Notes: a model not told the origin generated them from the sequence alone. Shown: positions 15,366-30,587, numbered from the stretch's first letter. The stretch is 64,000 nucleotides of DNA from an uncultured Bdellovibrio sp. (GCA_964498705.1 CAZCHT010000003.1:960-64959), one strand, 5' to 3'. Translations and numbers: made by a program.

Positions 15366-15435
15366 GTTTTATTTATAATCATAAAACTTCAATTTTTGCA
15401 TAGTTGCATCCCTAAAACCCACTTAGCATTAAATC

Positions 15436-17034
15436 ATGGATCAAGAGATAAGTCAGGTTGAAAATAAAATTTGGGATAACGTGATTATTGGTACTGGAAT
15501 GGGGGCGGCAGCGCTGGGATATGCTTTGGCTAAAGCAGGGCAAAGCGTTTTGTTTTGTGAAAAAGGACTACTTCGAGATGGAAATAAATCTAATTTAATT
15601 GGTTTTGCTGAGAAAAATCTTTCTAATTCTTTGGATATTGAGTCACGAAAAGAAATTTTTAATAAAATGGGTAGGTTTTGTGACCCCCTTTTTGAAGCTA
15701 AGGGCGTTGGAAAGAAGTCAAAGATTCAGAAACTATTTCCAATGTTAGGTGTTGGCGTCGGTGGATCTTCGGCTATTTATGGGATGGTCCTTGAAAGATT
15801 TTTTCCATATGATTTTGAAAATAATGATTGGCCAATAAAATTTTCAGATTTAGAGCCATTTTATCGTCAAGCTGAAAGTTTATTTGAAGTTCATGGAGAA
15901 CCAGATCCTCTTAAATTTGAGCAAAACTTTTCTTATATAAATCGCAACTATCAAGAAGTTCATCCAGTAAATGATGTGCTTATAAAATACTTGAAAAAAA
16001 ATAGATATCATCCGTATCGGCTTCCACTTGCGAACAAAAAAATTAATGGTTGTAATACTTGCCAAGGTTTTCTGTGTAATAAGAATTGCAAAAATGATGC
16101 TTGGAATATTTTAATACAGCCAGCTTTGAAATTACCTTTTTCAAAGCTTTTAGTCGAAGCAGAGGTGATATCACTTGAAGCTAATTCAGAACAAGTTCAT
16201 CTGGCTAATATGAAAATGAACAATAAAAATTTTAAGATCAAAGGAAAACGATTTATTCTAGGTGCGGGGGCAATAAATACTCCAAAAATTTTATTACAAT
16301 CAAAATCTTTGTATCATCCTGATGGGATTGGAAATCATTATTCTGTTGTTGGAAAATTTTTGATGAGACATCTGGTGGATCTATATGCTCTGAATTTGAA
16401 AAAGTCTTATGGACAAACAGGAAGTGTGAAAGAGTTTGGAATTAATGATTTTTATGCTTTTGAAAACTTTAAGTTTGGAAATATTCAGTCTTTTGGAGCC
16501 TTACCTGAAGAGGATCTTATAGCTCGTGATTTGATTTTTAAGCTCACGCAAAATAAAAAAAGTTTAAGTTCGTTATCAGTGCAAACTTTTTTACCTATGG
16601 TAAAAAAAATCATCAAATACATAACTCAACCTTCAACTTTGTTAGCGGCAACGATGGAGGATGAGCCTCTGGCTGAAAATTCTATTTATTTTAATGAAGT
16701 AAATGAGCTGTATTTAAGATATCATATTAGTTCTAGGGACCAAGAAAAACTAAAACTTTTTAGAGGTCATATTTTAGAACTGTTTAAACCTTTTAGCCCT
16801 CGGATTATTAAAATGGCAGAGTCTAATGAAATGTTAGGGCATATTTGTGGAACATGTAGAATGGGCCGTGATCCAAGAAAAAGTGTTATAGATCAATACA
16901 ATAAGGTCCATGGATTGAAGAATCTTTATATTGTAGATTCATCTTTTCTACCAACAAGTGGAGGAACTAATCCTGCTTTAACTTTAGTTGCAAATAGTTT
17001 AAGAGTTGCAGATCATTTGACAAAAAATCAGTGA
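15436..17034 (+). CDS. GMC family FAD-dependent oxidoreductase
   Basis: The N-terminal FAD fold is DNVIIGTGMGAAALGYALAKAGQSVLFCEKG. It has a Cys-rich insert CNTCQGFLCNKNCKND. The C-terminal GMC motif is GTCRMGRDPRKSVIDQYNKVHGLKNLYIVDSSFLPTSGGTNP. Confidence 0.85.
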   Translation: MDQEISQVENKIWDNVIIGTGMGAAALGYALAKAGQSVLFCEKGLLRDGNKSNLIGFAEKNLSNSLDIESRKEIFNKMGRFCDPLFEAKGVGKKSKIQKLFPMLGVGVGGSSAIYGMVLERFFPYDFENNDWPIKFSDLEPFYRQAESLFEVHGEPDPLKFEQNFSYINRNYQEVHPVNDVLIKYLKKNRYHPYRLPLANKKINGCNTCQGFLCNKNCKNDAWNILIQPALKLPFSKLLVEAEVISLEANSEQVHLANMKMNNKNFKIKGKRFILGAGAINTPKILLQSKSLYHPDGIGNHYSVVGKFLMRHLVDLYALNLKKSYGQTGSVKEFGINDFYAFENFKFGNIQSFGALPEEDLIARDLIFKLTQNKKSLSSLSVQTFLPMVKKIIKYITQPSTLLAATMEDEPLAENSIYFNEVNELYLRYHISSRDQEKLKLFRGHILELFKPFSPRIIKMAESNEMLGHICGTCRMGRDPRKSVIDQYNKVHGLKNLYIVDSSFLPTSGGTNPALTLVANSLRVADHLTKNQ

Positions 17035-17040
17035 TTTTTC

Positions 17041-17155
17041 TGGCCCACCAAAGCATGAACAATACTTCCAGCAGCACTTCGAGATGAACATCCCTCAGTA
17101 AATCAAAACCTAGATGTTAGACTTGAACAATTCGGCCTTATTTCGTCCTATCCTC
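17041..17155 (+). mobile_element. Second IS91-family transposase 3' remnant plus element-end motif
   Basis: CACCAAAGCATGAACAATA(C/T)TTC is shared with 11789-11810. Here the reading frame continues PPKHEQYFQQHFEMNIPQ* and the 17-nt motif follows at 17139-17155. The 11.8-kb copy lacks the intervening ~88 bp. Confidence 0.55.
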
Positions 17156-17184
17156 TCGAGGTGGAGTTTGTACAATTAGTTCAA

Positions 17185-17330
17185 CTGCCTAATACGGTGT
17201 TGATATGCTGGTTGCTGCATGGAGTTGACCGATTAGGATCTCATTTAATCTTACTCTAAATTTTGACAGAAGAATAGTTTCTGGCGCTCAAGGAGCGAAA
17301 TTGATAGCCCGCATTTCAGAAATTCTATAG
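17185..17330 (+). pseudogene. Decayed 3' fragment of a third E2 catalytic-domain-like gene
   Basis: The translation VDMLVAAWS*PIRISFNLTLNFDRRIVSGAQGAKLIARISEIL* aligns to the C-terminus of the 10826-11605 product. It has an in-frame TGA at 17226-17228, an internal deletion of about 19 codons and no 5' part. Confidence 0.8.
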
Positions 17331-17427
17331 AATGGCGCATTCTAAGAATTAACTTCAAATTCTAGTTTACAATATAAATAAATCCATAAACACTGATCGC
17401 AATAAAGTACTTTGCTGAGGTGTTCAT

Positions 17428-19119
17428 ATGAAAGCTAAATTACGACAACGGGTTCTATATTTGATCTTTATGTTTTTACTAATTGGAATGAGTCAAAAGT
17501 TGATGGCAGCGGATAAAGAAGCTCTCAGAATTGGAATGATTCAGGAATCTGACACGCTAAATCCGTTACTATCCAGTAACTCAGCAGGACGATATATTCT
17601 AGGTTTCTTGCACAGGCCCTTTGTTTCTCTTGATAATGATAAAGAGTTTAAACCGTTAATTGTAAAAAAAATTCCAAATTTAAAAGATAAATCACTTAAG
17701 GTCTTTACTACAAATAAAGTAAAAAAAATAAAAGCAACTTGGGAATTTGTCGACGGTTTAAGGTGGAATGATAATGTTCCTGTTACTTGTAAGGATTTAC
17801 ATTTTTCATGGCAAGTGGGATTAAATCCAAATGTTACTTTGGCATCAAAAGAGTCTTTTGAGAAAATAGAAAAAATTGAATGGGAGGAAAAGACGCCTAC
17901 AAAATGTAACGTCACTTATAAGGAGGCACATTGGAATTTTTTTTTGAACATGCCCGATTTGTTACCGGCTCATCTTGAAGAAAGTATTTATAACAAATAC
18001 AGCAGCAGTAAAGAGGGGTACGAAAGAAATTCCAATTATCAAAGAGAACCTACTAAAAAAGGGCTTTGGTTTGGTCCCTATATAATTTCAGAAGTTAAGC
18101 TGGGTTCACATTTGATTTTAACTGCTAATGAAAACTTTTATGGAAAAAAGCCAAAAATTAAAAACATCATAATTAGATATATCACGAGTTCTGCCTCATT
18201 GGAGTCAAATTTAAGATCAGATACAATAAACCATATAGCTCGATTGGGATTATCTTTAGATCAGGCGTTAATTTTTGAAAAGAAAATTCAGGCCGAGAAA
18301 TTACCTTTCGAGGTCAAGTTTCAAGACGGAATGACTTATGCCCATATAAATATTAATTTAACTCACTCTATACTTAAAGACCAAGGTGTGCGCCAAGCTC
18401 TATCCTATGGCTTAAATAAACAAGAGATTGTAGACAGTTTATTTGAAGGTAAAGCTACAATCGCCTATCATTTGATTTCACCGCAGGATCCTTTGTACAC
18501 AATGGATCCTACCACCATTAATAAGTATGAATCGGACAAAAAAAAGGCTCGAAAGATTTTAGATGATATTGGCTGGAAAGTTGGGTCGGATAGTTTTCGT
18601 TATAAAGAAGGTCAGAAGTTGAGGTTCACTTTGGTTGCTGCTGGAGGCGCAAAAATAAACGAGACTATTCAGACACTGATACAATCCCAATGGAAAGAAA
18701 TTGGAGTTGATTTGAAAATTAAATCGGAAACAGGGCGTACGTTATTTTCTGAGACATTACCAAAACAAAAATTTGATATGGCTCTAGTTTCCTGGGCTAG
18801 TTTTCCCCAAGAATCAGTCAGTTCGGTTCTTAATTCTAAGAATATTCCTTCGGATAGTAATATGTGGGCAGGGCAAAACTATGCTGGTTACAAAAACGAA
18901 CGAGTTGACCAGTTGACAGATCATTACGGAAGTGAATTTGATTTTGAGAAGCGAAAAAAAAACATGCGCGAAGTTATGAGCCTATATACAAAAGAAGTTC
19001 CGGCTATCCCCCTATACTTTAGGAAGGAAAATTCAGTTGTACCTGTGGGTATGAAAAACTTTGAATTAACTGGACATTTATTTTTTGAAAGTTTGAAATC
19101 CGAAAATTGGGAGCTTTAA
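17428..19119 (+). CDS. ABC transporter substrate-binding protein, family 5 (peptide/nickel/opine type), orphan
   Basis: 563 aa with signal peptide MKAKLRQRVLYLIFMFLLIGMSQKLMAA. Length and overall pattern are typical of OppA/DppA-like SBPs. No permease or ATPase genes are adjacent. Confidence 0.7.
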   Translation: MKAKLRQRVLYLIFMFLLIGMSQKLMAADKEALRIGMIQESDTLNPLLSSNSAGRYILGFLHRPFVSLDNDKEFKPLIVKKIPNLKDKSLKVFTTNKVKKIKATWEFVDGLRWNDNVPVTCKDLHFSWQVGLNPNVTLASKESFEKIEKIEWEEKTPTKCNVTYKEAHWNFFLNMPDLLPAHLEESIYNKYSSSKEGYERNSNYQREPTKKGLWFGPYIISEVKLGSHLILTANENFYGKKPKIKNIIIRYITSSASLESNLRSDTINHIARLGLSLDQALIFEKKIQAEKLPFEVKFQDGMTYAHININLTHSILKDQGVRQALSYGLNKQEIVDSLFEGKATIAYHLISPQDPLYTMDPTTINKYESDKKKARKILDDIGWKVGSDSFRYKEGQKLRFTLVAAGGAKINETIQTLIQSQWKEIGVDLKIKSETGRTLFSETLPKQKFDMALVSWASFPQESVSSVLNSKNIPSDSNMWAGQNYAGYKNERVDQLTDHYGSEFDFEKRKKNMREVMSLYTKEVPAIPLYFRKENSVVPVGMKNFELTGHLFFESLKSENWEL

Positions 19120-19130
19120 TTTTAAAGATA

Positions 19131-19847
19131 TTATTTTTCTTTAATAAATGTCATTACCCCTTTAGCGTCATAATGTGGGCAGATGTCTTTGTCATTGAAC
19201 TCAAGAAACAATTCATTTTTAATTCTATAAATTTCGTAGTCACGATTTGCCTCTTTTTTAAAATAGCCGCCAAAATCATATTTCATGTAGGTTGAAACCG
19301 AAGCTTGAATACCAAAATTTTGTAAAAAGAAGGATTCTGCAAAAGTCTTAAAACTAAATTTTTGATATTCTGAAAATTCCCCGTTACACTTATTGATAGC
19401 TTTATAATTTACGTTAGAATCGACAAGGATACCTTTTAGTGAATAATGGTTGATACCATTACCTGTGGATGAATAATCAATTTGGACTTTATTTTTTGAC
19501 CAAATAAAAGGATTTTTATTGTCACGATCTGCATTCATAGTGGTTTGATTAAGCTTACAACTACTTTGAAGAACTGCTTTTTCGACATATCGTTCAGGCT
19601 TCAAACCATTATTAGAAATTGTATTTATTCTTAGTTCCACTTCCACATTAAAAATTCGAGGATCAATATCGACAATTGTTCCATAATAATAGGTAGGCTC
19701 ATCTTTAACAAAATAACGACACAGCATCTGTGTTTTTCTCCAGACGCCATCTAAACCATCCGTTGTAACTTGATTTACTTGAGAAAAAACAGAATTGGTT
19801 ATCAATAACAAACCTGTTAAGAGTAAGACAAGATTGATTTTTTTCAT
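19131..19847 (-). CDS. Secreted protein, unknown function
   Basis: 238 aa with signal peptide MKKINLVLLLTGLLLITNSVFSQ. No recognisable domain. Confidence 0.55.
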   Translation of the reverse strand: MKKINLVLLLTGLLLITNSVFSQVNQVTTDGLDGVWRKTQMLCRYFVKDEPTYYYGTIVDIDPRIFNVEVELRINTISNNGLKPERYVEKAVLQSSCKLNQTTMNADRDNKNPFIWSKNKVQIDYSSTGNGINHYSLKGILVDSNVNYKAINKCNGEFSEYQKFSFKTFAESFFLQNFGIQASVSTYMKYDFGGYFKKEANRDYEIYRIKNELFLEFNDKDICPHYDAKGVMTFIKEK

Positions 19848-20109
19848 AAATTGACCTCAACTTCTATATTCGAAATTAAGGCCATTGCCGAAACGAACCT
19901 ATTCTAGCTTAAGAACCAACAACTGACTGATAAAACTACACAAGTTCAAAATTTGTCTTAATAAATGCGAAATGGACGAATTGCTTTACTAGCTTTCCTA
20001 TCCGAGTAGACATTCTTTTGAAGAGGAATTATTCCTGCCAAAGCGGCATTGAAATTCAATGGGGGCTTAGGTGAATAAATAGGTCAGCCCATGCCTTCAC
20101 TCTGGACGC

Positions 20110-20288: not shown

Positions 20289-21477
20289 CACCAGTACTCA
20301 TGATTTTGAAACCAAATTCTTTTTTCTCGACTTCTTGTGAGCCGATAATAATTGTGTAGTGGGCGTTTTTGTTAGAGGCTTTTTTCATTTTTTTGCCTAC
20401 GTTGCCACCATAGATAATTTCAATTTTGAATTTTGTCTCAGACCGCAGTCGACTAGCTAATCGCAATGATTCAATTTCTCCCACTTCGTCAGCTGGTACA
20501 AGTGCGATCAGTTTTAAATCTTCTGTCAAAAGAGATTTATCCGATAACTCTACTAAACGTTCAACGCCAGCCGCCCAGCCTACACCCGGAGTTTTAGGAC
20601 CGCCCATTGTTTCGATAAGTCCATCATAGCGACCACCCGCAAGCACGGTTCCTTGTGCACCCAGTTCTGTAGTCACAAACTCAAAAACTGTATGGGTATA
20701 GTAATCAAGCCCGCGCACTAGTTGAGATGATTTCTGGTAAGGAATTTCAAGAATATTAAGTCCGTTAATCAGTGAATCAAAATATTTTTTAGAAGCTTCA
20801 TTCAAAGAGCCTTCTAATTTAGGTGCGCCTTCGTTGATTTTCTTATCACCTTCATCTTTAGAATCTAAAATTCGCATTGGATTTTTTTCTAAACGAACCT
20901 TTGAATCCGCTGATAAATCGTTTTTGAATTTTTCATAATAAGTGACCAAAGTTTCGCGATAGGCAGCACGCGACTCTAAATCACCCAAGGTGTTGATCAA
21001 TAGGTTACATTTTTTTTCAATGCCGATCGATTTTAAAAGTTCATAGCCCAATTGCAAACATTCGATGTCCATCAAGTACGACTCAATTCCTAAAACTTCC
21101 ACTCCGATTTGGTGAAACTGGCGCAAGCGGCCTTTCTGTGGACGTTCGTAACGAAACATAGGACCGCAGTAGTATAGTTTCAAAGGAATTTTTTGAGCCA
21201 AGCCTTCTGAAATAAATGCACGCGCAATGCCGGCAGTGCCTTCGGGTCTTAGAGTCAGTGATTCATCTGATCGATCTTTAAATGTATAGGTTTCTTTGCT
21301 GACGACGTCCGACGTTTCGCCCAATGTGCGATGAAAAACTTCAGAATGTTCGAATATAGGTGTTCTGATTTCACCGAATCCATATCTTTGTGCTTTATCA
21401 TAAAAAGCACGCTCCATATTTCTAAAATAACTGCTTTCCTGTTCAAACCAATCTTGGGTGCCACGTACTCTTTGCAT
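20236..21477 (-). CDS. hisS: Histidine--tRNA ligase
   Basis: Class II aaRS/HisRS motifs [33 protein letters not shown] and AGGRYDGL, plus a C-terminal anticodon-binding domain. Confidence 0.95.
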
Positions 21478-21556
21478 AGGACTGAGTTTAGTAGATTTAT
21501 CCCGCTATTCAAAATGATTTTTACTCGACACAGTTGATAATAATGAGGTATTTACG

Positions 21557-22030
21557 GTGATTATGATTAAAAAATCGAACATTTGGTACATCGTCAGTGG
21601 CTGCATCTTTGCTTTTGTTCTAGGTAGCCTGTTAGTGTTTTTCATCAAAAAGAACCAGTTCACAGCCGAAGGAGCCGAAGTCGATTGGCGCGTACTGGGT
21701 GAAATGGACTATATCACGGGTAAAGCGCCAGATACTTTGAGCAAGTTCAGCGGTGCTCAGGTAAAAATTCCTGGATTCATGGTTCCTTTGGAGGACTCTC
21801 AAAAAGAAGTTTCCGAGTTTTTGCTAGTGCCGACTCCGCAGGCATGCATTCACGTTCCCGCACCGCCACCTAATCAGATGGTGTATGTAAAAATGAAGCC
21901 GGGTCGAAAAGCTGAAGTTCCCTATGGGCCAATTTGGGTGCATGGAAAACTAAACATGGTGACCAAAAAATCCATGTATGGCGATGCCAGTTTTGAACTC
22001 GAAGGCGAATTAGTCGAAAATTATAAATAG
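21557..22030 (+). CDS. DUF3299-like membrane-anchored protein
   Basis: It has an N-terminal TM helix. The motif VKIPGFMVPLE...EFLLVPTPQACIHVPAPPPNQMVYV resembles the DUF3299 signature as I recall it. Confidence 0.55.
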   Translation: MIMIKKSNIWYIVSGCIFAFVLGSLLVFFIKKNQFTAEGAEVDWRVLGEMDYITGKAPDTLSKFSGAQVKIPGFMVPLEDSQKEVSEFLLVPTPQACIHVPAPPPNQMVYVKMKPGRKAEVPYGPIWVHGKLNMVTKKSMYGDASFELEGELVENYK

Positions 22031-22051
22031 GGTAGTGAGCCGCTAGGCAAG

Positions 22052-23866
22052 CTAAGCGGCGATTTTTACTTTGTCGGCAGCTTCAGGTTCGTAATCTGAA
22101 TACGGCGTAACAACGATTTCGTATTCACCATCAGCTTTCTTGTATCCACGAACTTTATGAAGCTTGAGTGGTTCAGAGCGACCTTTAACTTCCGCAGAAC
22201 CAGCGTACTCTGTTAAATACGAATCACCAATTTTTTCTAGAACGGTATCGCTGACCAGTAAGTCGGAACCGAATGCTTTGGTGGAAGATTCAATACGTGA
22301 GCCAGTATTCACGGTGTTACCGATAATTGTATACTCCATACGCTCGTCAGAACCGATAGTTCCTGAAATTGCAGATCCCGCGTGAAGTCCCATACCGATT
22401 TGAATTGGCGGCTCTTTACGGCCCATGCGTTTTTCATTTAGGTCGGCTAAGGCACGTCGCATTTCTAAGCACGCTTTCACGGCATTGTGCGCATCTTTTT
22501 TGTTAGCCTTCGGAACGCCCCAAACGGCCATGATCGCATCACCGATAAATTTATCGACGATACCGCCATTGGCGTTAATAATTTTCACCATAACAGCGAA
22601 ATATTCATTCAACATACCAACGACTTCTTCGGGTTTACGTTTTTCTGAGAACGCAGTGAAACCACGAATATCACTAAAAAATACGATAACGTCTTTTGAC
22701 TGACCGCCGATACTGACGTCTTTTTTCATTAAATCTTCGGTAACGCTAGATCCATGGAACTTGTTGAACAAGTTTTTAACTTTATCCCGTTCCTTCAAAC
22801 CTTCGGTCATGGAATCGAATGCGGTTGCCAGTTCTTTAACTTCATCTTTGAAGAACGTTTTAACTTGGCCGGATGCATTCACGTCGAAGTTACCTTTTGA
22901 GACTAAATGAATTAAATTAGTCAAAGTTTCAAGTGGCGATGTCAATGTCATCGAAAACACGAATACTAGGAATAGTGTTACTGACAAGAAATAGCCTACA
23001 ATTTGAATAATATTGTTTTTAAGTTCCTTCGTAACGACCAGGATTTTCTCTTCTTCAACTTGCGAGAAAACAATGGGGCCAAATGTCGTTTTGGCATAAG
23101 CCGCGTACATAGCTTTTTGGTTGGCTGAAACGGGTAAGTACTTCATTCCAGATGCCATCGAGCTTTGCAGTGCAAAACGAACGATTTCATTTCCAGAAAA
23201 GTTTTGTTTCTTAGTTGCTAACGATTCGTCACGATGACCCATCACGATACCATTTTTATCAGTTACGAAAAACAAATTTAGTCCGGCGTCTGACATAGTT
23301 TTTTGAATCAGCGACAAGTCGATATCCGCCACGACGTAGTGAGTGATAGTCTTATTTATTTTTATCAATGGCAGCGCGATTGTGACGATTGGCTCCCAAG
23401 TTTCAATTGAACTATTCAAGATAACCATGTTGCCTTCTTTGATTTCATTGCGATCAAAAGGCGAACGTTTTCTATATTCAGCAACACGAGTATCGAAAGG
23501 CTTTTTATAACTATTGCCGATAGCAACTTCGCCCGAACTTTCATATTTGTAAACTTCTATACCTAATAGGGCGCTATCCAAATTAAAATTGGCTTCAAAA
23601 TCCTTTTGATAGTTTAAATCCGCTGTGTTGCCTTCTTTCCAGCTTTGAAGCAAACGACCATTTAACGTAACTTTGTCTTTTAGATTATTAAATAATTGGT
23701 TTAACTCACGGGCTTTACCCATAGCTAATGCTAGATTATTGTCTTGTTGAAACTCAACAAGTTTAGCGCTAGTGATTTCTGAAGTCTTCATTGTAACGGG
23801 GATGGTGACACCGATTAGGAGGACTACTGTGATAACGATAAGTTTAATTGAAATCGGTATTCTCAT
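22052..23866 (-). CDS. Membrane-bound class III adenylate/guanylate cyclase with periplasmic sensor domain and HAMP
   Basis: Domain order is TM1, a ~270-aa periplasmic region, TM2, then HAMP (LTNLIHLVSKGNFDV...FDSMTEGLKERD). The cyclase core is VIVFFSDIRGFTAFSE, KFIGDAIMAVWG, GLHAGSAISGTIG and YTIIGNTVNTGSRIES. Confidence 0.9.
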   Translation of the reverse strand: MRIPISIKLIVITVVLLIGVTIPVTMKTSEITSAKLVEFQQDNNLALAMGKARELNQLFNNLKDKVTLNGRLLQSWKEGNTADLNYQKDFEANFNLDSALLGIEVYKYESSGEVAIGNSYKKPFDTRVAEYRKRSPFDRNEIKEGNMVILNSSIETWEPIVTIALPLIKINKTITHYVVADIDLSLIQKTMSDAGLNLFFVTDKNGIVMGHRDESLATKKQNFSGNEIVRFALQSSMASGMKYLPVSANQKAMYAAYAKTTFGPIVFSQVEEEKILVVTKELKNNIIQIVGYFLSVTLFLVFVFSMTLTSPLETLTNLIHLVSKGNFDVNASGQVKTFFKDEVKELATAFDSMTEGLKERDKVKNLFNKFHGSSVTEDLMKKDVSIGGQSKDVIVFFSDIRGFTAFSEKRKPEEVVGMLNEYFAVMVKIINANGGIVDKFIGDAIMAVWGVPKANKKDAHNAVKACLEMRRALADLNEKRMGRKEPPIQIGMGLHAGSAISGTIGSDERMEYTIIGNTVNTGSRIESSTKAFGSDLLVSDTVLEKIGDSYLTEYAGSAEVKGRSEPLKLHKVRGYKKADGEYEIVVTPYSDYEPEAADKVKIAA

Positions 23867-23875
23867 AATAATCCT

Positions 23876-25558
23876 TTAAAATTGATACTCCGCAAATAAA
23901 CTAAAATAGAATCCGTTAACACTGGTGTCGACGTTAACATTGCTACTGTACTCTGCATTGGCAGAGGGCAGGTTAAACGCGTTAGTTGTACTTTCGTCTT
24001 TATACTTCACTTGATCTTTTCTATAAGTAAGGCCCAGCAATCCGGTAAATTTTTGGTTAAACTTGTAGCTGCCTAAAACTCCGTATTCATCTGATAACGT
24101 TGGCTGAAAACCGGTTCCGTTATTGGGTAACTTAACTGCCGACATAGAATAGAACCAATTGGAATTAAGTTGAAATCCTAATTTCGGTGTCAGTGAGAAC
24201 CAATATTCGAAACCAAAATGAGGACCTAACATCGAAATGTTTTGATTGCTTGTACCTTTGAAGCCCGACAGAGATCTATTATTCGAGTTAAAGTAATTCG
24301 AAATTTCTGTGATGTCGGCCAGAGTTTGTGGAATTTCTTTATAGAACATTCCAGTTTTAATTCGGAACTCATCGGTTTCACGAACCGATTTGCGCCAAAC
24401 TGCGTTTAGGTACATTGAATTGTAAATGAACGCACCTTTTTCTTGATCACCTTTTAAAAATCCGCTGATATCCATAACACCAGAAAATCCCCAAGAAGTT
24501 CCTTCTTTGAACCAACCCGTACCGATACGGCCTGTGCCGCCTAGAATGCTGTATTTGGGGTTAAGTCCCTTGTACGAGGACGAATAGTTAATCATGGAAA
24601 CAAACCAGCTCGCGATACCGTACCAACCGTTAATACGGTCAATTGATTTTCTTAAGACATACGTGTACTCGGCACTTGGTGACCGATCGCCATTTTTAAC
24701 TTTGAATATCAGAGCCGACTTATCAGAGCTTGGACGTAATTTTCCGGTACTTTGAACAATCACACGGTAGTTGCCGCCAGGCCATTTTGGATCAATAACA
24801 ATTTTGTTTCCGACAAACTGTCCGACTTGAACTACTTTCTGCCATTTTTTACTTGGCGTTAGATACTTTTGAAGTTCAATAGCATAAGTTTGCGCAAGAG
24901 GGTCTTGATTCCATGAAACGTCGCGGACAAACTGATTTTCAGGTGTCAAGATTGTCGGTTTATCTAACTTCTTACCAATGACGGTGATATCGCCAGTAGT
25001 TTCAGATTCGCTATTTAGATTTCCGCTATCAAGAGCTGTCATGGACCAGCTATATTTTTTGCCAACCGGTAGGGAAACGACAATTTTAAAGTCGCTGATA
25101 GTTTGTTCTAATATTTCCGTGTTAGAATCAGTATCTCTAATTTTCAGTGAGTATTTATCAGCACCTAGAACTTCTTTCCATTCAAAGCTGACTTCATCTG
25201 TATCTGCGCTATTGGATTTAACTTCAAAGTTATTTTGTGCTGGCTTGGTGACTTCGACTCTGTCGAGTAGAACTGGAAACGTAACTTCCTCACTCCATAC
25301 CCCAGGAACGTTACGATAATCAAGTGAACGCAGTTTCATTTTGTAGATTCCGGGTGGAATTGGCCCCGTGTATGCATTTGTTTCTGTAAAGAAATCAGTA
25401 ACTACTTCGGAATTATTTTTCGTGTTTGTGAACTGCACTTGATATCGTTTGGCGCCGGCAACGGGGTCCCATTCAAACGAGATTGTTTTCATATAGATAT
25501 CCTTCGCTATGGCTAAGGTGCTAATTAGGAAAAGTGCGATGACCAATTTGTTTATCAT
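23876..25558 (-). CDS. Outer-membrane beta-barrel protein with N-terminal Fn3/Ig-like repeats
   Basis: It has a signal peptide. Three repeats have a W...A..Y pattern (FEWDPVAGAKRYQVQF, FEWKEVLGADKYSLKI, VSWNQDPLAQTYAIEL). The C-terminal ~270 aa shows alternating hydrophobicity and ends ...FAEYQF. Confidence 0.65.
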   Translation of the reverse strand: MINKLVIALFLISTLAIAKDIYMKTISFEWDPVAGAKRYQVQFTNTKNNSEVVTDFFTETNAYTGPIPPGIYKMKLRSLDYRNVPGVWSEEVTFPVLLDRVEVTKPAQNNFEVKSNSADTDEVSFEWKEVLGADKYSLKIRDTDSNTEILEQTISDFKIVVSLPVGKKYSWSMTALDSGNLNSESETTGDITVIGKKLDKPTILTPENQFVRDVSWNQDPLAQTYAIELQKYLTPSKKWQKVVQVGQFVGNKIVIDPKWPGGNYRVIVQSTGKLRPSSDKSALIFKVKNGDRSPSAEYTYVLRKSIDRINGWYGIASWFVSMINYSSSYKGLNPKYSILGGTGRIGTGWFKEGTSWGFSGVMDISGFLKGDQEKGAFIYNSMYLNAVWRKSVRETDEFRIKTGMFYKEIPQTLADITEISNYFNSNNRSLSGFKGTSNQNISMLGPHFGFEYWFSLTPKLGFQLNSNWFYSMSAVKLPNNGTGFQPTLSDEYGVLGSYKFNQKFTGLLGLTYRKDQVKYKDESTTNAFNLPSANAEYSSNVNVDTSVNGFYFSLFAEYQF

Positions 25559-27444
25559 TGGCCACTCTGCTTAATGTTTAAGTTTTTAAGTTTTGGAGCA
25601 GACATCGTTGTAAAATTAGGAACTTCAAATTCAAAAGACTCGCTGGAAGGGCCACGACGGTTGTAGTGATCGATTGGAGTCACTTTAACTTGATACGTTC
25701 CCGGATTTAGGCCAGACATTGTTCCTGAGTAGCTTAAGTTGCTATTTCTAGAAGATACTTTTTCGATCTTGTTTGTCACCGGACTATAAATTTCAACTTC
25801 GTAAGATCGGACAACAGATTGATAATCCCATTGCAAGTTAACGACACCGTTTTCAAAATAGTATTTATTCGTATTTTGATTGAGTTTAACGACTTTATTG
25901 TTAATCACAGGAGCTTTCGGCAGAGGCATTTCCAAGACTTCAATATTTTTTAGAGTAGTCTTTGTCATGCTAACGCCATTTTTATCTAAAGGTTCGATCG
26001 AGACCTTGTAACTTCCCGGTTGAATTTGATCGTTTACAAATTTCAATTCAGTCAGTTCACGAGTAAATACCGGTTTTGAGTCAGCGCTAAATACTTCCAA
26101 TTTCCATTTGGCGACATCTTCTTTGCGAGTCAGTGCATCCCAACTGATCGTCATCGTTGGCTTGTCTAAGTAATATTGTTTTTCTTGAGTATTGCCCCAA
26201 GTTAATGATGGCGGCGGTTTTGGTGGCTCTTTTTTCACCACACGGAATTTTTGAATTTTAGTATAGATGGGTCGATCCATGTCTTCATACTTTGTAGCTA
26301 CGCGCCAGTAGTAGTCGCCTTCGCTATTGATGGTCATTGCAAACTCTTGAGCATTGCTGACATTGCGGCTGTTGATAACGAAATTATCAGCCATTGTCGG
26401 CGATTTCGAAACGTCGAGCATCAAGCTCTTAAACGCATTTGGTTTTTGCCATTTAAGGGAAACGTTTAATGGAACTTTGTCATAGATCATGACTTCATCG
26501 TTTTTTGGCGCGGTGACTAATACAGAAAAGCGGCTTTGCACGCTCAGTTTGTAGGCCGCAGAATCATAGGTAATTTGTTTGGTGACCGGGTTTCTTGAAA
26601 CCAATTTCCAAACGTAATTTCCTGGAGATAAAATAGTGTTTACGTTTTCTTTTCCTGCAGGAACAACTTCTTTTTCTTTTAAGGTATCTTTGTTTTCGCC
26701 TGTCATTAAGACAGTTTCGTCTTTCTTAGGTGTACCTTTCCAGCGGAACGAAACCGTAGTGTCCGTTTCAGGATCTATATAATAGATAAGTGTTGTTTTA
26801 TCAGATTCTTTTTTAATACTAGGAGAGATAATTTTAATCTCTTCCTGAACTTGCATTCCGTTTTTAGTTAAACTAACGGCTTGTCCAGAGGTTAGGTCTT
26901 TTACATTACCTTTTTCATCTCGGATTTGCGATTTACCCTCGATGACGTTAACTTTAACATCGCCTTTTGAGTTTTTATCTTTCGAAATTTGTGCTTTCGC
27001 ACCACTTAAATCTAATCGTTTGTTTTCTGCAACTAGGACTAAATTTGTAGGTTTGGCATCAGCCGTATTTTTAGCATCAACGAAAACGCTACCTTCTTTT
27101 AGATCAAGAGAGATTTCGTCTTTAGATTTTTGAATTACAAAAGTAGAGTTAGGATCAACTTTGATAGATCGGTTATCTAGGAAGCGAATTTCAATTTCAC
27201 TTCGTGACGACGTGCGAACGGTATCGCCGTCAAGTAACCAGTCTCCGGTTTCAATTGGCAACCATTGCAAACTAGATGCGAACTTTTTGTGTGCATCTTC
27301 AGATGTTGAGGTGACCTGCGCCAATTGCTCGGAACCCGTGTTAGTTACCGTTTTTACCAATGAGCGTGACCACAGGAAAGTTGCTAAGAAGCAACTTCCT
27401 GAAAGAAAAAACGCCCAAAATAATCTTCGTAACTGAAACTTCAT
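25555..27444 (-). CDS. FecR-domain membrane-anchored periplasmic protein with Ig-like repeats
   Basis: It has an N-terminal TM helix and a FecR-like segment (WLPIETGDWLLDGDTVRTSSRSEIEIRFLDNRSIKVDPNSTFVI). Repeated W-containing ~90-aa modules follow. An ATGA stop/start overlap links it to the downstream gene. Confidence 0.7.
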   Translation of the reverse strand: MKFQLRRLFWAFFLSGSCFLATFLWSRSLVKTVTNTGSEQLAQVTSTSEDAHKKFASSLQWLPIETGDWLLDGDTVRTSSRSEIEIRFLDNRSIKVDPNSTFVIQKSKDEISLDLKEGSVFVDAKNTADAKPTNLVLVAENKRLDLSGAKAQISKDKNSKGDVKVNVIEGKSQIRDEKGNVKDLTSGQAVSLTKNGMQVQEEIKIISPSIKKESDKTTLIYYIDPETDTTVSFRWKGTPKKDETVLMTGENKDTLKEKEVVPAGKENVNTILSPGNYVWKLVSRNPVTKQITYDSAAYKLSVQSRFSVLVTAPKNDEVMIYDKVPLNVSLKWQKPNAFKSLMLDVSKSPTMADNFVINSRNVSNAQEFAMTINSEGDYYWRVATKYEDMDRPIYTKIQKFRVVKKEPPKPPPSLTWGNTQEKQYYLDKPTMTISWDALTRKEDVAKWKLEVFSADSKPVFTRELTELKFVNDQIQPGSYKVSIEPLDKNGVSMTKTTLKNIEVLEMPLPKAPVINNKVVKLNQNTNKYYFENGVVNLQWDYQSVVRSYEVEIYSPVTNKIEKVSSRNSNLSYSGTMSGLNPGTYQVKVTPIDHYNRRGPSSESFEFEVPNFTTMSAPKLKNLNIKQSGQ

Positions 27445-27603
27445 TATTTAAGTTCCTGAAATGTTAAAATTTTTCTATTTATCCTCTCGGCAAAAAATTA
27501 AGGAACATTTAGATCTAGCGACCTCAGTCCAGTGTCTAGTCCAGCCAGTCAGCTGACATCTTTTGATTTTACAGACCTTAGTTATAGGGGTAGGCTGCCA
27601 GAC

Positions 27604-28080
27604 ATGTCCAAGAAGAATTATATAACCCCTGAAGGCGCTGAAAAATTGAAGGCCGAGTATAACCAGCTCTTTCATGGTGAGCGACCAAAAGTAGTAGAAA
27701 CAGTGTCTTGGGCGGCCAGTAACGGTGATCGGTCGGAAAACGCGGATTATCAGTATGGGAAAAAACGTCTTCGTGAGATCGATCGTCGATTGAAGTTTTT
27801 GATGGATAGATTGGATGGAGTAGAGATCGTTCAAGTCACTGATATTAAGTCAGACAAGATCGTTTTTGGGGCCACGGTTACCTATCGAAATGAAGATGAA
27901 GAATCATTTACGTATCAAATCGTGGGTGAAGATGAGTTTGATATTAAGGAAAATAAAATTTCATGGAAGTCGCCTATTGCGACCACACTGTTGGGTAAAA
28001 AAATCGGCGACGAAGTTCGTTGGGTAAAACCAAACGGAGAAGAAGACTATTTTACGATTGAAAAGGTAGAGTATAAATAA
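27604..28080 (+). CDS. greB: Transcription elongation factor GreB
   Basis: MSKKNYITPEGAEKLKAEYNQLFHGERPKVVETVSWAASNGDRSENADYQYGKKRLREIDRRLKFL is near-colinear with E. coli GreB. ATG 27604 is preferred over the ORF track start 27532. Confidence 0.9.
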   Translation: MSKKNYITPEGAEKLKAEYNQLFHGERPKVVETVSWAASNGDRSENADYQYGKKRLREIDRRLKFLMDRLDGVEIVQVTDIKSDKIVFGATVTYRNEDEESFTYQIVGEDEFDIKENKISWKSPIATTLLGKKIGDEVRWVKPNGEEDYFTIEKVEYK

Positions 28081-28086
28081 ATAAGT

Positions 28087-29064
28087 CTACGGCACGATCT
28101 TAAGAGCTTGATCCAGATAACCGCTGTAAAATCCAACTATGCTATATACAATTTGTCCGATGACCAACCAATACAGAATGACAGGGAAAACTTTAACCAT
28201 AGTTTGAATTGTGCTCTCATTCTCACTTTTTATTCTGTCGGCATATCGTTTTAGAAACTCGGGCAATTTGCCAGCTTGTGATCCTAAACTAATGGCAGTT
28301 GTTAAATCTATTGGAAAAATTTTCTCAGCTTGAAACGCTCTTTGGGTTTCAACTCCTGACTGAATTCTAGGAATGATTCGCTCGATCGCCTTTTGTAGCT
28401 TGGGATTGGCAGAGCACTGGCCAGATTGCTTTAGGGCTTCGAAAAAATCAATGCCGGAATCTAGCATGAATCCTAATGTAGCCGCAAATTTCTCAAATGC
28501 CATTTTCGAATTTAGTTTTTTAAAAAATGGCAATGAGTTCATCACTTCATGCAATGTTCGTGCTTTTTGCAAATCAAAGTAAGACTGAATCCAGTAGTTA
28601 TAAATAATAATGAAAACAGCCGTGATTAATGCCAATACGCCTAAACTATTTCGAAGATAGTGTGCGAGGGTAATTTTCTCGGAAAATAAATCTGTGACTC
28701 CGGGAAACATCAAAGCGGCCGCAAAAGTGAAATAAGGCTTCATTAAGCTCAGGCGAATCTTCTTGATTGATTCGTGGGTGTCGGAATGTTTCTGTGAAAG
28801 GTTTTTGAACACCTCAACAATGCGACCAGAATCCTCTGCCGCCTTCACAAGGGGAAGATCATTTACGGGTACACATTGGGCCGCCCGAAAACTTTGATGC
28901 AGGGATCGTCCCTTGCGTAGATTCTGGCTCACGCTATGTAAAACTTGGCTATTATGCCCTGATGATCCCTTTTGCAGAGCCTCTGTCGTCGAGGCCACAT
29001 CAATGCCGGCGCTGTAGAGCTCGGCAAAATTTTTATAAAATAGGCTTAACTGGGCAAATGACAC
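28087..29064 (-). CDS. Type II secretion system F-family (GspF/PilC/TadB-like) inner-membrane platform protein
   Basis: It has two T2SS-F-like repeats (FYKNFAELYSAGIDVASTTEAL...LVKAAEDSGRIVEVF and FEKFAATLGFMLDSGIDFFEAL...ISLGSQAGKLPEFL) and three TM segments. The GTG start overlaps the TAG stop of the GT39 gene by 1 nt. Confidence 0.65.
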   Translation of the reverse strand: MSFAQLSLFYKNFAELYSAGIDVASTTEALQKGSSGHNSQVLHSVSQNLRKGRSLHQSFRAAQCVPVNDLPLVKAAEDSGRIVEVFKNLSQKHSDTHESIKKIRLSLMKPYFTFAAALMFPGVTDLFSEKITLAHYLRNSLGVLALITAVFIIIYNYWIQSYFDLQKARTLHEVMNSLPFFKKLNSKMAFEKFAATLGFMLDSGIDFFEALKQSGQCSANPKLQKAIERIIPRIQSGVETQRAFQAEKIFPIDLTTAISLGSQAGKLPEFLKRYADRIKSENESTIQTMVKVFPVILYWLVIGQIVYSIVGFYSGYLDQALKIVP

Positions 29065-30587
29065 TAATTTTTAATACCTTTAAAGTTTTCGCAAAGCCAA
29101 AAGTGAAATGTCCGCGAGAGTTCATCTCGGCGATAATATTTATATTCCGTTTCTTTGCAGCGATCAAAATCAGCATATTCGAGCGGGTTGTCCGGGTATT
29201 TTTCTGTTGTCAGAATTAAACCGTCCATTCCAACAAGGGCTTCCAAAGTATTTCTCTTTTTCTGCATAACCGTGTAGTGGCTCACGAATTTATTTAACAT
29301 CACGATATTAGGATCTTTAGTTCCCCAGATCGTTTGCGCTGTGGTTTCATAGCGAATGGCAGCTAAGAATGGTTTCTTGCCTGATTCAGAATGAATCTGT
29401 CGTTGACGTTCGAGTAACTTGCTTCCGGCGTCTTCCCAGCCAAAGAACTCATTCGATAAATCGTTGCGCGTGTCCCAAGGCTCGGAACTAACCATACGAT
29501 GTAATTTTGGCATGAATGGGTAAATAAAAGGTGCATAGATAAACACATTCAATAAAATAAAAATGGCTAAGATCGATACTAACCATTTTCTACTTTGCGG
29601 CAGAACTAACTGGCGACCAAACAATTCAAGCCCGTTGTAGAATAAATAACCAGCCACCATCGTCATAAATAAAGTCGCGGGACCTGACCAATGTGGTTTG
29701 TATTCAGCGAAAAAGGGCTGTGTGTAAAACACGACAAAACTAGGAATGAATAAACAGAATAAAAAACGGAAACGAAGATCTTGAAACTTTTTAATACAAA
29801 AAGCGATGGCACCTAAAATCAGTAAATAGATCGGCGGCGTGTAAAATAAAAACTGAGTTCCAAACCATTGCAACCAGCGGTCGATCGAAAAACCACCGTC
29901 TGAATGACGTCCTTGGAACTGATATTTAAATCCTGGCCAATCGTATTCGATGTTCCACAAGAAAATCGGCATGCAAACAAGTGTAGCGATGAAAACACCG
30001 ATCCATGGCCACGGAGAGAGCAGCATTTTGCGATAGGGCGGCGTTGACAATAAAAAGACACCAAAACCAAACGCCAGCATAGCCATTACAAATTTAGAAT
30101 TTAATCCAAGTCCCATTGTAATGCCTAAGATCAGCCAAACAGTTTTGACAGACCAGCGCTTATTATCATCACGTATGCTTTGCCAAAATATCCAAGCCGA
30201 AAAAATCCAAAAGAAAAAGAACACGGGTTCTGGTGCATTCACATAACCACCGAATCCCCAGAACGGAGTCCACAATAAAAGTTGGCTCACGAAAAATGCG
30301 ACCTTGCGGTCAAAGATATCTTCCGTCAGCTTCCAGCTGAATACGATCGTCAAAGTGTAGAAAATAAATGAGGTTAAGCGAATACCAAGAATAGTGTCGC
30401 CAAATAAACTTGTAGCTAGGTAGTTCAGCCACGAAATCATGCCGGGATGGTCATAATACGATAACATTAAATCTTTGGACCATGACCAATGATAAGCTTC
30501 GTCATCGATCAAATTAACATTCAGTGCAAAAAATAAGCGAAATAGAAATGTAACGGCAAATATCAATACATAAGGCATAGACCCCAA
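29064..30587 (-). CDS. GT-C fold glycosyltransferase family 39 (ArnT/PMT-like)
   Basis: It is polytopic. The N-terminal signature is FALNVNLIDDEAYHWSWSKDLMLSYYDHPGMISWL (DEAYYW...YfDHPP pattern of the ArnT/PMT_2 family). Confidence 0.85.
   Translation of the reverse strand: MGSMPYVLIFAVTFLFRLFFALNVNLIDDEAYHWSWSKDLMLSYYDHPGMISWLNYLATSLFGDTILGIRLTSFIFYTLTIVFSWKLTEDIFDRKVAFFVSQLLLWTPFWGFGGYVNAPEPVFFFFWIFSAWIFWQSIRDDNKRWSVKTVWLILGITMGLGLNSKFVMAMLAFGFGVFLLSTPPYRKMLLSPWPWIGVFIATLVCMPIFLWNIEYDWPGFKYQFQGRHSDGGFSIDRWLQWFGTQFLFYTPPIYLLILGAIAFCIKKFQDLRFRFLFCLFIPSFVVFYTQPFFAEYKPHWSGPATLFMTMVAGYLFYNGLELFGRQLVLPQSRKWLVSILAIFILLNVFIYAPFIYPFMPKLHRMVSSEPWDTRNDLSNEFFGWEDAGSKLLERQRQIHSESGKKPFLAAIRYETTAQTIWGTKDPNIVMLNKFVSHYTVMQKKRNTLEALVGMDGLILTTEKYPDNPLEYADFDRCKETEYKYYRRDELSRTFHFWLCENFKGIKN

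Follow-up and report, generated by a model that had tools for sequence, protein, structure and literature searches.

What do three tightly linked genes, encoding a FecR-domain protein, an outer-membrane barrel protein and a sensor cyclase, accomplish together in the cell envelope? The question is raised by a 64,000-nucleotide stretch of DNA from an uncultured Bdellovibrio sp. (GCA_964498705.1 CAZCHT010000003.1:960-64959; hereafter the window), for which an earlier note had proposed a cell-surface signalling pathway analogous to FecA-FecR-FecI, with cAMP or cGMP as the output. We refer to the genes as G1, G2 and G3.

Gene layout and conservation of the trio

The three linked minus-strand genes reported at 22052-27444 are present as open reading frames with exactly the claimed boundaries (Table 1). 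The ATGA overlap at 25555-25558 is formed by the stop codon of G1 and the start codon of G2, while at the second junction the 9-nt gap at 23867-23875, AGGATTATT, separates the G2 stop TAA from the ATG of G3. As TAA directly precedes AGGATTATT, the first A of the AAGGA that had been placed in this gap is the last base of the stop codon, and AGGA lies inside the gap, a trivial nuance. The genes flanking the trio are greA, a T2SSF-like gene, PMT_2, DUF3299 and HisRS, and the same genes surround it in Bdellovibrio sp. HCB337. A promoter-like site is located within the divergent greA/G1 intergenic region; in the consensus scan this region holds fewer promoter-consensus sites than its own shuffles, and the site is thus weak evidence. 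Elsewhere in the window, a genuine TonB-dependent transporter is encoded at 36170-38758.

Table 1. Genes and features of the trio locus, with positions counted from the first letter of the window
Feature	Position	Strand	Description
G1	25555..27444	-	629 aa; bitopic inner-membrane protein, FecR-type domain, four Ig/Fn3 modules and conserved tail
G1 N-terminal helix, signal anchor	27349..27441	-	residues 2-32; AF2
G1 FecR-type beta domain	26824..27327	-	residues 40-207; PF04773 covers 74-171
G1 four-module Ig/Fn3 rod	25621..26793	-	residues 218-304, 309-404, 414-505 and 520-608; AF2 secondary structure
G1 C-terminal tail	25558..25608	-	residues 613-629; candidate orphan Fn3 A strand
G2	23876..25558	-	560 aa; predicted outer-membrane protein, three periplasmic Fn3-like modules, helix and 10-strand barrel
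G2 signal peptide	25505..25558	-	residues 1-18, AIA|KD
G2 Fn3-like modules D1-D3	24692..25504	-	residues 19-289
G2 conserved linker with helix	24629..24691	-	residues 290-310, GDRSPxAEY..RKSIDR
G2 C-terminal beta-barrel	23879..24628	-	residues 311-560; 10 predicted strands, ends ...AEYQF
G3	22052..23866	-	604 aa; TM1, dCache-like periplasmic domain, TM2, HAMP and class IIIb cyclase
G3 periplasmic domain, dCache_1-like	23012..23785	-	residues ~28-285
G3 TM2 and HAMP	22793..23011	-	residues ~286-358
G3 class III cyclase catalytic domain	22172..22699	-	residues 390-565; D399, K439, D443, T513, N520, R524
Promoter-like site TTTTCA-16-TATAAT	27617..27644	-	consensus scan only; ~170 nt upstream of G1

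Using a G2 profile to recover related loci, we found the trio conserved elsewhere, with the order G1-G2-G3 unchanged and the tight coupling kept in 61 of 62 species loci. Counted from stop to start, the G1-G2 spacing equals -1 or -4 in 47 of 63 loci; most G2-G3 gaps are ≤16 nt. Across these loci identity falls to about 25-30% for G1, 31-37% for G2 and 42-50% for G3, and with order and coupling preserved at such distances a shared function of the three genes is hard to avoid. Gene structure, translational coupling and the conservation patterns are directly established features of the locus. All trio-bearing loci belong to Bdellovibrionota, except three MAG contigs deposited under other names, and two independent metagenome contigs also carry the trio; predatory Bdellovibrio-type bacteria almost always possess it in coupled form. 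A search for relatives of G1 and G2 outside the Bdellovibrionota group yielded none. The position of greA, divergently upstream of the trio in 52 of 65 loci, argues that the locus is part of the vertically inherited core genome.

Domain architecture of the cyclase and the two envelope proteins

G3 had been described as a class III cyclase with a large periplasmic domain and a HAMP domain, congruent with Pfam matches above cut-off for Guanylate_cyc (PF00211, 101 bits) and HAMP (PF00672, residues 304-358, 27.5 bits against a cut-off of 25), the latter located directly after TM2. Residues 51-260 resemble dCache_1 (PF02743) with 26 bits, below the cut-off of 45, and an unmarked dCache_1 match is precomputed for the Bdellovibrio sp. 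HCB337 orthologue. The segment comprising TM2 and HAMP displays a column conservation of 0.84-0.92. For the catalytic domain the closest solved enzymes are Cya2 (2W01/6FHT) and P. aeruginosa CyaB (3R5G), and alignment to 2W01 and 3R5G identifies D399 and D443 as the two metal-binding aspartates and N520 and R524 as the transition-state Asn/Arg pair. The position of K439 is occupied by lysine in CyaB and in the engineered 6FHT and by glutamate in the guanylate cyclase Cya2, while T513 corresponds to the threonine of CyaB, Thr replacing Asp as in class IIIb. All six residues are invariant in 61 species, and these intact ATP-type residues are, like the domain and fold assignments of the trio, directly established. 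Given the invariance of the ATP-specifying pair Lys439 and Thr513, a pair shared with class IIIb CyaB, G3 is predicted to be a class IIIb adenylate cyclase producing cAMP; of the two outputs envisaged earlier, cAMP is retained and cGMP dropped. CyaB and other class IIIb cyclases thus have the same metal Asp pair, Lys/Thr substrate pair and Asn/Arg pair as G3, which differs from them in its sensor modules and gene partners.

The proposal that G1 is an inner-membrane-anchored FecR-domain protein with Ig/Fn3-like modules also held. Residues 74-171 match the Pfam FecR profile (PF04773, 34 bits against a cut-off of 24, E 4e-8), a match that is precomputed for most G1 homologues, and the single-chain AF2 model (pLDDT 83) comprises the N-terminal helix, the beta domain and four Ig/Fn3 modules, the rod of which matches multi-Ig/FnIII ectodomains in Foldseek. 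The helix exposes a conserved face formed by R7, L8, A11, S15, T22 and W25 (column conservation 0.79-0.93 in 56 species) and is followed by 'WYQST' with no AxA cleavage motif, as judged from reading the sequences by eye. Within G1, the FecR-type domain is best conserved (FecR part 0.7-0.89), compared to 0.76 for the tail and 0.3-0.7 for most blocks of the Ig rod. The tail is modelled with low pLDDT and contains the conserved motif S-x-(L/V)-x-A-P-x-L-K-K-I-K-V-N.

For G2, the AF2 model of the single chain (pLDDT 87) recovers the suggested fusion of modules of the same kind to a C-terminal barrel, with three Fn3-like modules preceding 10 barrel strands at pLDDT ~80-95, and the protein indeed ends in YQF, or ...AEYxF with a terminal aromatic residue across homologues. 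Foldseek matches include FnIII tandems, OpcA (TM 0.62) and FadL. A final AxA is shared by the signal peptides of all species aligned; their sequence is poorly conserved, as expected if they are cleaved. By prediction, G2 therefore combines the features of an outer-membrane barrel, namely a cleavable signal peptide, an even number of strands and a C-terminal aromatic residue, and together with long variable loops predicted to face outward these place the Fn3 modules in the periplasm. The linker at residues 290-310, with a helix at 294-306, is the most conserved segment of the protein and the membrane-distal D1 the most conserved module (0.67 vs 0.50 and 0.56), while conservation is lowest in the predicted surface loops, which are variable, as seen in the predicted outer loops L3 and L5, and rich in indels. 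This lack of loop conservation suggests that the barrel serves as an anchor rather than as a ligand receptor. A type V autotransporter, in which a 12-strand barrel with the linker helix inside exports an N-terminal passenger to the surface, was considered and rejected, as G2 has 10 predicted strands and no Autotransporter match in Pfam.

Relation to Fec-type signalling and other precedents

How far does the likeness to FecA-FecR-FecI reach? In both systems a PF04773 domain in the periplasm belongs to a bitopic protein of the inner membrane, encoded beside the gene of an outer-membrane barrel, and the notion of signalling across the entire envelope is common to them. In FecR-type anti-sigma regulators, a cytoplasmic anti-sigma domain of about 80 aa lies N-terminal to the transmembrane helix; G1 has no more than about 7 residues ahead of its hydrophobic helix and hence no such domain. 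In the Fec system the transducer is composed of a Plug, a 22-strand barrel and an N-terminal STN domain, and is bound by the STN-like C-terminal domain of FecR. By contrast, the G2 barrel has 10 strands and no plug, with no Plug, TonB_dep_Rec or STN match in Pfam, and the C-terminal 400 aa of G1 are the four Ig/Fn3 modules, with no Pfam match to an STN-like domain (FecR_C / DUF4974) at E<=1. No ECF sigma gene, as judged by sigma-70 family matches, is found among the flanking genes, and the predicted surface loops, which show the lowest conservation in G2, speak against a conserved FecA-like ligand site on the cell exterior. The trio further differs by its rods of Ig/Fn3 modules and by an output that would be a second messenger from a separate membrane enzyme. 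Hence, with anti-sigma domain, STN domain, ECF sigma factor and TonB-dependent transducer all missing, we rejected the trio as a Fec-type system. The earlier interpretation is supported in part: the idea of a trans-envelope layout ending in a cyclase is reasonable, while the analogy itself reduces to the ~95-aa PF04773 domain.

Likened by function, the closest precedent is the NsrA-Cya-Clr pathway of S. meliloti, where the inner-membrane cyclases CyaK and CyaD1/D2 depend on the outer-membrane barrel protein NsrA acting upstream of them (PMC7529298). Shared with the trio are a barrel with a large periplasmic part, inner-membrane class III cyclases and cAMP; however, the NsrA cyclases use CHASE2 sensor domains instead of the dCache-like domain and HAMP of G3, and neither a FecR-Ig rod partner nor a single coupled operon with the cyclase genes is described for NsrA (PMC7529298). 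Another parallel is offered by Burkholderia, where periplasmic LysM-FecR proteins are encoded beside CHASE2 histidine kinases (PMC5192318). In these operons, found in Burkholderiales and Pseudomonas, a FecR protein without anti-sigma domain is likewise encoded directly upstream of a membrane sensor-transducer with a periplasmic domain, but they feed into a two-component system, pair the FecR domain with the peptidoglycan-associated LysM rather than an Ig rod, and lack an outer-membrane barrel carrying Fn3 modules (PMC5192318).

A putative route from the envelope to cAMP, and its alternatives

The trio is a real, conserved and uncharacterised envelope-to-cAMP module, for whose genes we found no paper, phenotype or expression data, and judging from sequence it probably couples envelope state to cAMP signalling. 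On balance, we lean towards the three proteins forming one envelope-spanning signalling module, specific to Bdellovibrionota and with cAMP as the output. All protein-protein contacts, the direction of signalling and the nature of the signal we infer as follows. G1 would be held in the inner membrane by its uncleaved N-terminal helix, with the FecR-type domain at the membrane, beside the periplasmic domain and the transmembrane helices of G3, and with the four-module rod extending towards the outer membrane. G2, anchored by its barrel, would let its three modules hang into the periplasm, where the rods of G1 and G2 may meet, the likeliest joint being the G1 tail providing an A strand that is missing from D1 of G2. 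G3 would act as a homodimeric inner-membrane class IIIb adenylate cyclase set via HAMP by periplasmic events, so that cAMP synthesis could respond to the outer membrane, be it to its position, its integrity or the load on it, or to something bound along the rod. Conservation is concentrated at the ends of the two envelope proteins, in the FecR part and tail of G1 and in the membrane-distal D1 of G2. G3 also has a dCache-like sensor domain of its own and could work alone, an observation that counts against a bridging module.

Indeed, a small molecule binding to this dCache-like domain might suffice to control G3, with G1 and G2 serving as a separate envelope structure, e.g. a tether between inner and outer membrane, a spacer or an adhesin, that is co-expressed with the cyclase but does not control it. 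Proteins of the dCache-HAMP-cyclase type elsewhere are complete one-component sensors, and G3 has an architecture of this kind with a dCache-like domain; moreover, G3 is far better conserved than G1 and G2 (about 50% identity vs 30-37%), and paralogues of G2 exist without an adjacent cyclase. We nevertheless regard such autonomy as possible but doubtful, considering the persistence of order and coupling in nearly all loci, down to 25% identity, and that the best-conserved part of G1 is the membrane-proximal FecR domain and its transmembrane helix has a conserved face, at the place where G3 sits.

Returning to the envelope-spanning module, the modules shared by G1 and G2 had been taken as a sign that the two proteins interact. 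The seven modules do align as one family; sharing is not, however, in itself evidence of contact. A more specific candidate is offered by D1 of G2: in each of the 59 species aligned this module has no A strand and begins about 20 residues further in than its counterparts, as much as one A strand would span. When the G1 tail is fused to D1, the chimera aligns to the HMM of the fourth G1 module from position ~3 instead of 23; the score rises in 51 of 52 species and shows no gain if the tail is shuffled, although the rise is small (median +1.75 bits). The tail could thus be an orphan Fn3 A strand that completes D1 as a split-module joint between the rods. Counting against this, two solitary G2 paralogues (L054 and L002), with no G1 adjacent, also lack the A strand. 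In addition, at a rough 4 nm each, eight modules would equal or exceed the width of a typical periplasm, so the two rods may run alongside each other or slant instead of meeting tip to tip.

Taken to its end, the joint would turn G1 and G2 into an unbroken rod that stretches from inner to outer membrane, is built of eight beta-sandwich domains (seven Ig/Fn3 modules plus the FecR-type domain) and senses force or spacing, a scenario we consider unlikely. If true, the last ~12 residues of G1 would be a donor-strand joint between two membranes, and deformation, detachment or loading of the outer membrane, e.g. upon prey contact or squeezing into prey, would be passed via the FecR-type domain and the conserved transmembrane helix to the HAMP-cyclase, yielding a pulse of cAMP. 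Such a joint would resemble donor-strand complementation in chaperone-usher pili and TonB-box beta-augmentation in that one polypeptide would lend a strand to an incomplete Ig-type fold of another, except that here it would link an inner- to an outer-membrane protein in the periplasm, for signalling.

Two further mechanisms were weighed against the envelope-spanning module. Regulated proteolysis, nearer to Fec signalling in its logic, with G1 holding the cyclase off (or on) until an envelope signal sensed by G2 triggers G1 cleavage and releases it, would be in line with the true PF04773 domain and the conserved transmembrane helix of G1, and FecR-type regulators are processed in the periplasm and membrane, as known from work on FecR, FoxR and RseP. 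It nonetheless appears rather improbable, as G1 lacks every other part of Fec-type regulators and neither the operon nor its flanks contain a protease gene. Even less probable is ligand delivery, where the barrel of G2 admits a solute that G1 binds in the periplasm and presents to the dCache domain of G3. The G2 barrel is ten-stranded, and ten-strand barrels such as OpcA and OmpT are not known as solute channels; in addition, its predicted surface loops are variable and indel-rich, and a binding-protein role needs no seven Ig/Fn3 modules. The idea draws on the Foldseek match to FadL, a transporter barrel with a plug, on the conserved helix preceding the barrel, and on FecR-type domains having initially been regarded as periplasmic sensors (PMC5192318).

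Finally, G3 as the cyclase of a Pycsar-type anti-phage system is effectively refuted. Its matches to the PADLOC PycC models (best E 1.2e-36) are expected, because PycC proteins are class III cyclase homologues; a Pycsar cyclase adjoins an effector with a cNMP-binding domain and produces a pyrimidine cyclic nucleotide, whereas no such effector is found in G1, G2 or the flanking genes, the locus belongs to the core genome and keeps its synteny throughout the group, and the specificity residues of G3 are of the purine/ATP type (Lys, Thr).

A conserved three-gene unit of Bdellovibrionota

The three genes under study, G1 (a FecR-type protein with Ig/Fn3 modules), G2 (Fn3 modules and an outer-membrane barrel) and G3 (a sensor cyclase), are consecutive on the minus strand, and the ORF table is identical to the layout of the earlier note, including the ATGA overlap at 25555-25558, which is common to the stop codon of G1 and the start codon of G2. 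The 9-nt interval between G2 and G3 was likewise recovered, the G2 stop codon TAA being followed by AGGATTATT and then by the G3 ATG; of the AAGGA quoted for this gap, a Shine-Dalgarno-like AGGA indeed lies inside it, but the first A is part of the G2 stop codon. The G+C content of the operon region is ~40%, and no Rfam match, leader RNA or riboswitch, was obtained within 21000-28500. Apart from a single plausible -35/-10 pair ahead of G1, scanning for promoters and terminators revealed nothing above shuffled background, and no paralogues of the three genes were found elsewhere in the window.

Tested across genomes, the trio proved conserved. A scan with a G2 profile of one genome per GTDB species returned 62 loci, and tblastn with all three proteins showed that 61 of these share the order and orientation of G1, G2 and G3, as do both metagenome or genome contigs able to show the order. 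The hosts are Bdellovibrio, Pseudobdellovibrio and unnamed Bdellovibrionota, several B. bacteriovorus strains included, with three exceptions: trio contigs deposited as Bacillota, Streptomyces griseus and Proteobacteria MAGs (L026, L048 and L046), which, judging by gene content, are probably mis-binned Bdellovibrionota contigs. Database searches with G2 yielded 48 clusters, down to 30% identity, with organism names restricted to Bdellovibrionaceae or Bdellovibrio, and G1 recovered 36 clusters from the same group. Between the G1 stop and the G2 start the spacing is -1 in 37/63 loci and -4 in 10/63, and the G2-G3 gaps fall mostly within -13 to +16. In 52 of 65 loci greA is found upstream in divergent orientation, and the downstream genes often include DUF3299 and HisRS. 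The trio locus belongs to the vertically inherited core and does not form an island. Two G2 paralogues depart from the arrangement in standing alone (L054 and L002), the former flanked by genes for a 1513-aa RCC1-repeat protein and a BrnT toxin.

The trio is real, uncharacterised and confined to predatory Bdellovibrionota; our literature search found no work linking Bdellovibrio with FecR or describing the three genes. In databases, G1 is named 'FecR domain-containing', G2 'hypothetical' or 'fibronectin type III domain-containing', and G3 'adenylate/guanylate cyclase domain-containing'.

Positions of the trio, of its predicted structural elements and of other features discussed in the text
Feature	Position	Strand	Details
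G1	25555-27444	-	629 aa; ORF table
G2	23876-25558	-	560 aa; ORF table
G3	22052-23866	-	604 aa; ORF table
G1 long N-terminal helix	residues 2-32		AF2
G1 all-beta domain	residues 40-207		AF2
G1 four Ig/Fn3-like modules (D1-D4)	residues 218-304, 309-404, 414-505, 520-608		AF2
G1 tail	residues 613-629		AF2; low confidence
G2 signal-peptide helix	N-terminus		AF2
G2 three Fn3-like modules (D1-D3)	residues 24-96, 103-194, 213-287		AF2
G2 linker GDRSPxAEY..RKSIDR with predicted helix	24629-24691 (residues 290-310)	-	AF2 and conservation
G2 helix before barrel	residues 294-306		AF2
G2 barrel	residues 311-559		AF2; ten long antiparallel strands
G2 long loops	residues 414-436 and 521-541		outer face of predicted barrel
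Solitary G2 paralogue, L054	5746-7587 of L054		three Fn3 modules and barrel; no adjoining G1 or G3
Solitary G2 paralogue, L002	8001-9659 of L002		three Fn3 modules and barrel; no adjoining G1 or G3
ExbB	34636-35265	-
TonB_C protein	35322-35996	-
TonB-dependent transporter	36170-38758	+	Plug and barrel
AraC-family regulator	8919-9677	+	low-G+C stretch
AraC-family regulator	9947-10792	-	low-G+C stretch
AraC-family regulator	13512-14279	-	low-G+C stretch
AraC-family regulator	14574-15365	-	low-G+C stretch

Predicted architecture of the three proteins

The FecR domain ascribed to G1 is supported by Pfam, with PF04773 covering residues 74-171 (34 bits, curated cut-off 24), and the AF2 model (25 homologues as input, mean pLDDT 83) resolves the proposed repeats of ~90 aa into four Ig/Fn3-like modules, for which Pfam gives weak Ig_J and fn3 matches close to the C-terminus. 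Foldseek matches of the model are multi-Ig/FnIII rods only, and a sequence search for solved structures akin to the FecR-type part gave chance-level matches only. Since merely ~7 residues precede the hydrophobic helix, G1 is without a cytoplasmic domain. The helix carries a conserved stripe, R7, L8, A11, S15, T22 and W25, with a spacing of 3-4 residues and column identities of 0.79-0.93 in 56 species, and is followed by 'WYQST', with no AxA motif. A cleaved signal peptide would not show such conservation, that of G2 reaching 0.35 only, and G1 is therefore read as signal-anchored. We infer a bitopic inner-membrane protein, the helix of which would pack on another helix.

No Pfam family exceeds its cut-off in G2. 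The AF2 model (40 sequences, mean pLDDT 87), Foldseek and the end of the sequence all agree with the Ig-like modules and C-terminal barrel ending in YQF anticipated from the DNA. The N-terminal half matches fibronectin FnIII tandems and the C-terminal half the 10-strand OpcA (target TM-score 0.62) and FadL, and the terminal aromatic residue of the closing ...FAEYQF is kept across homologues. Because the number of strands is even, both barrel ends would be periplasmic, placing the long loops outside and the short turns inside, and all three Fn3 modules are predicted to be periplasmic. A word-indexed profile search with the barrel returned 14 close members or fragments only, and an exhaustive HMMER search 268 proteins among 1.84 billion representatives. 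Nearly all of the latter are 520-560 aa long with one layout, the barrel starting from ~residue 290, and none provides a link to another known family; as judged from these sequences, the barrel family is narrow and uniform.

G3 agrees with the description as a class III cyclase with a large periplasmic domain and a HAMP domain, the Pfam matches being 101 bits for Guanylate_cyc and 27.5 bits for HAMP (cut-off 25). Alignment to solved cyclases identifies D399 and D443 as the metal-binding residues. K439 aligns with Glu of the guanylate cyclase Cya2 and with Lys of the adenylate cyclases CyaB and the engineered 6FHT, T513 with Thr of CyaB, and N520 and R524 are likewise present. As all six residues are present and invariant in 61 species, G3 is taken as a class IIIb adenylate cyclase with an intact catalytic site. 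Of the two outputs considered earlier, cAMP is the predicted product, whereas cGMP is disfavored by the ATP-type pair K439/T513.

Coupling across the envelope and its alternatives

To the idea that the trio forms a trans-envelope module feeding the cyclase, the best explanation at hand, we give a slightly better than even chance. It builds on gene structure, folds, predicted topology, catalytic competence and conservation, from which we infer every contact, the nature of the signal and whether regulation is positive or negative. A dimer of G3 would reside in the inner membrane next to G1, the two touching via the transmembrane helix, via the FecR-type domain on the dCache-like domain, or both. 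G1 would extend outward and G2 inward from the outer membrane until the rods meet, and changes in the outer membrane or the rods would alter HAMP signaling and in turn cAMP synthesis. Scored in blocks of 10 residues, G1 is best conserved in its FecR-type domain (0.7-0.89), whereas the Ig rod is mostly at 0.3-0.7, and values climb back to 0.76 in the final ordered block and the tail. The membrane-distal D1 of G2 reaches 0.67 vs 0.50 for D2 and 0.56 for D3, and conservation in that protein peaks at 0.78 in the linker with the predicted helix ahead of the barrel, a segment that may either plug the barrel or sit beneath it. Such conserved ends and a variable rod are compatible with a connector.

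The two rods may be joined by a split module. When aligned, the four modules of G1 and the three of G2 fall into a single family (pairwise E-values down to 2e-7) with W in strand B, then Y-x-V/L in strand C, then PG-x-Y. In this alignment D1 of G2 starts ~20 residues later than all others, leaving in the mature protein only 4-6 residues ahead of strand B; the late start is found in 59/59 species aligned, with the mature N-terminus 'xPYRRLVNFEW', and AF2 assigns six strands to D1 and eight to D2, A and A' among them. G1 in turn ends in a conserved segment, S-x-(L/V)-x-A-P-x-L-K-K-I-K-V-N, which is disordered in the single-chain model and similar to the A strand opening D4 of G1 (KAPVINNKVVK). 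A chimera of this tail and mature D1 of G2 aligns to the HMM of D4 of G1 from position ~3, not 23, with a median gain of 1.75 bits, seen in 51/52 species and nil for a shuffled tail. This modest, purely sequence-based evidence suggests that the G1 tail may complete D1 of G2 by strand donation, which, if real, would be a new mode of coupling inner- to outer-membrane proteins. The solitary G2 paralogues do not discriminate, since their first module lacks the A strand too.

The foremost rival is that G3 acts as an autonomous dCache cyclase, merely co-expressed with an envelope tether. The ~260-aa periplasmic region between its two transmembrane segments matches dCache_1 with 26 bits, below the cut-off of 45, and the orthologue of Bdellovibrio sp. 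HCB337 has a confident precomputed dCache_1 match; inspection of G3 by eye showed no amino-acid-binding dCache motif. Conservation of G3 is ~0.8-0.96 in the cytoplasmic half and ~0.45-0.7 in the periplasmic domain. A variant of the trans-envelope module operating via regulated proteolysis, and a ligand-delivery route, are further rivals. The two predicted surface loops of G2 are its least conserved parts (0.17 and 0.25, with many indels), which speaks against a conserved FecA-like binding site for a ligand outside the cell.

The Fec analogy of the earlier note was too strong, although its core idea of a trans-envelope module feeding a cyclase stays the best reading. Only PF04773 is shared with Fec-type cell-surface signaling, and the other four of five defining features are missing (anti-sigma domain, STN-like domain, ECF sigma gene and TonB-dependent transducer partner), hence membership of that family is rejected. 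Assignment to Pycsar fails on the missing effector, the purine-type specificity residues and the core-genome locus; PycC models do match G3, though this is expected for class III homologues.

The nearest functional precedent is found in S. meliloti, where the outer-membrane barrel NsrA is needed to activate the inner-membrane cyclases CyaK and CyaD1/D2 (PMC7529298), and for a FecR domain outside sigma signaling the LysM-FecR and CHASE2 kinase operon of Burkholderia (PMC5192318). A FecR-domain protein regulated by Clr, SMc02177, is known from S. meliloti as well (PMC5498481). If our reading is true, the trio would be the second outer-membrane-to-cyclase architecture after rhizobial NsrA-Cya, and another case of PF04773 beyond sigma/anti-sigma signaling. 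In B. bacteriovorus, cAMP-responsive proteins include the phosphodiesterase Bd1971, linking cAMP to c-di-GMP, and the four annotated cyclases of HD100 (bd0081, bd1116, bd2640 and bd3072) are uncharacterised sources of the cAMP it senses (PMC6717892). For bd1116 and neighboring locus tags, the literature search gave a single mention, within the cyclase list. Conserved, specific to the group and predicted to connect the outer membrane physically to a cAMP-producing enzyme, the trio is a concrete, testable candidate input to Bdellovibrio adenylate cyclases, and may bear on how these predators perceive contact with prey and the condition of their envelope.

Other features of the window

A separate TonB/ExbB and TonB-dependent transporter set, without link to the trio operon, is present in the window, and no FecR or ECF sigma gene was found beside it (34225-38758); it serves as a useful contrast to the G1/G2 pair. 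Unrelated to the trio, a stretch at ~6000-20000 has a G+C fraction of 0.29-0.36 vs ~0.41 elsewhere and looks like an acquired island. Besides four AraC-family regulators it contains two short 2-oxoacid_dh-type acyltransferase-like ORFs, an SDR, a hexapeptide transferase, a GMC oxidoreductase and an SBP_bac_5 protein. A 978-aa ORF with no Pfam family above cut-off (30654-33590, minus strand) lies upstream of genes for a PMT_2-type glycosyltransferase and a T2SSF-like membrane protein (28087-30587, minus strand), and a minus-strand cluster at 38822-42637 encodes a MoxR-type AAA_3 ATPase, a DUF58 protein and a TgpA-like transglutaminase.
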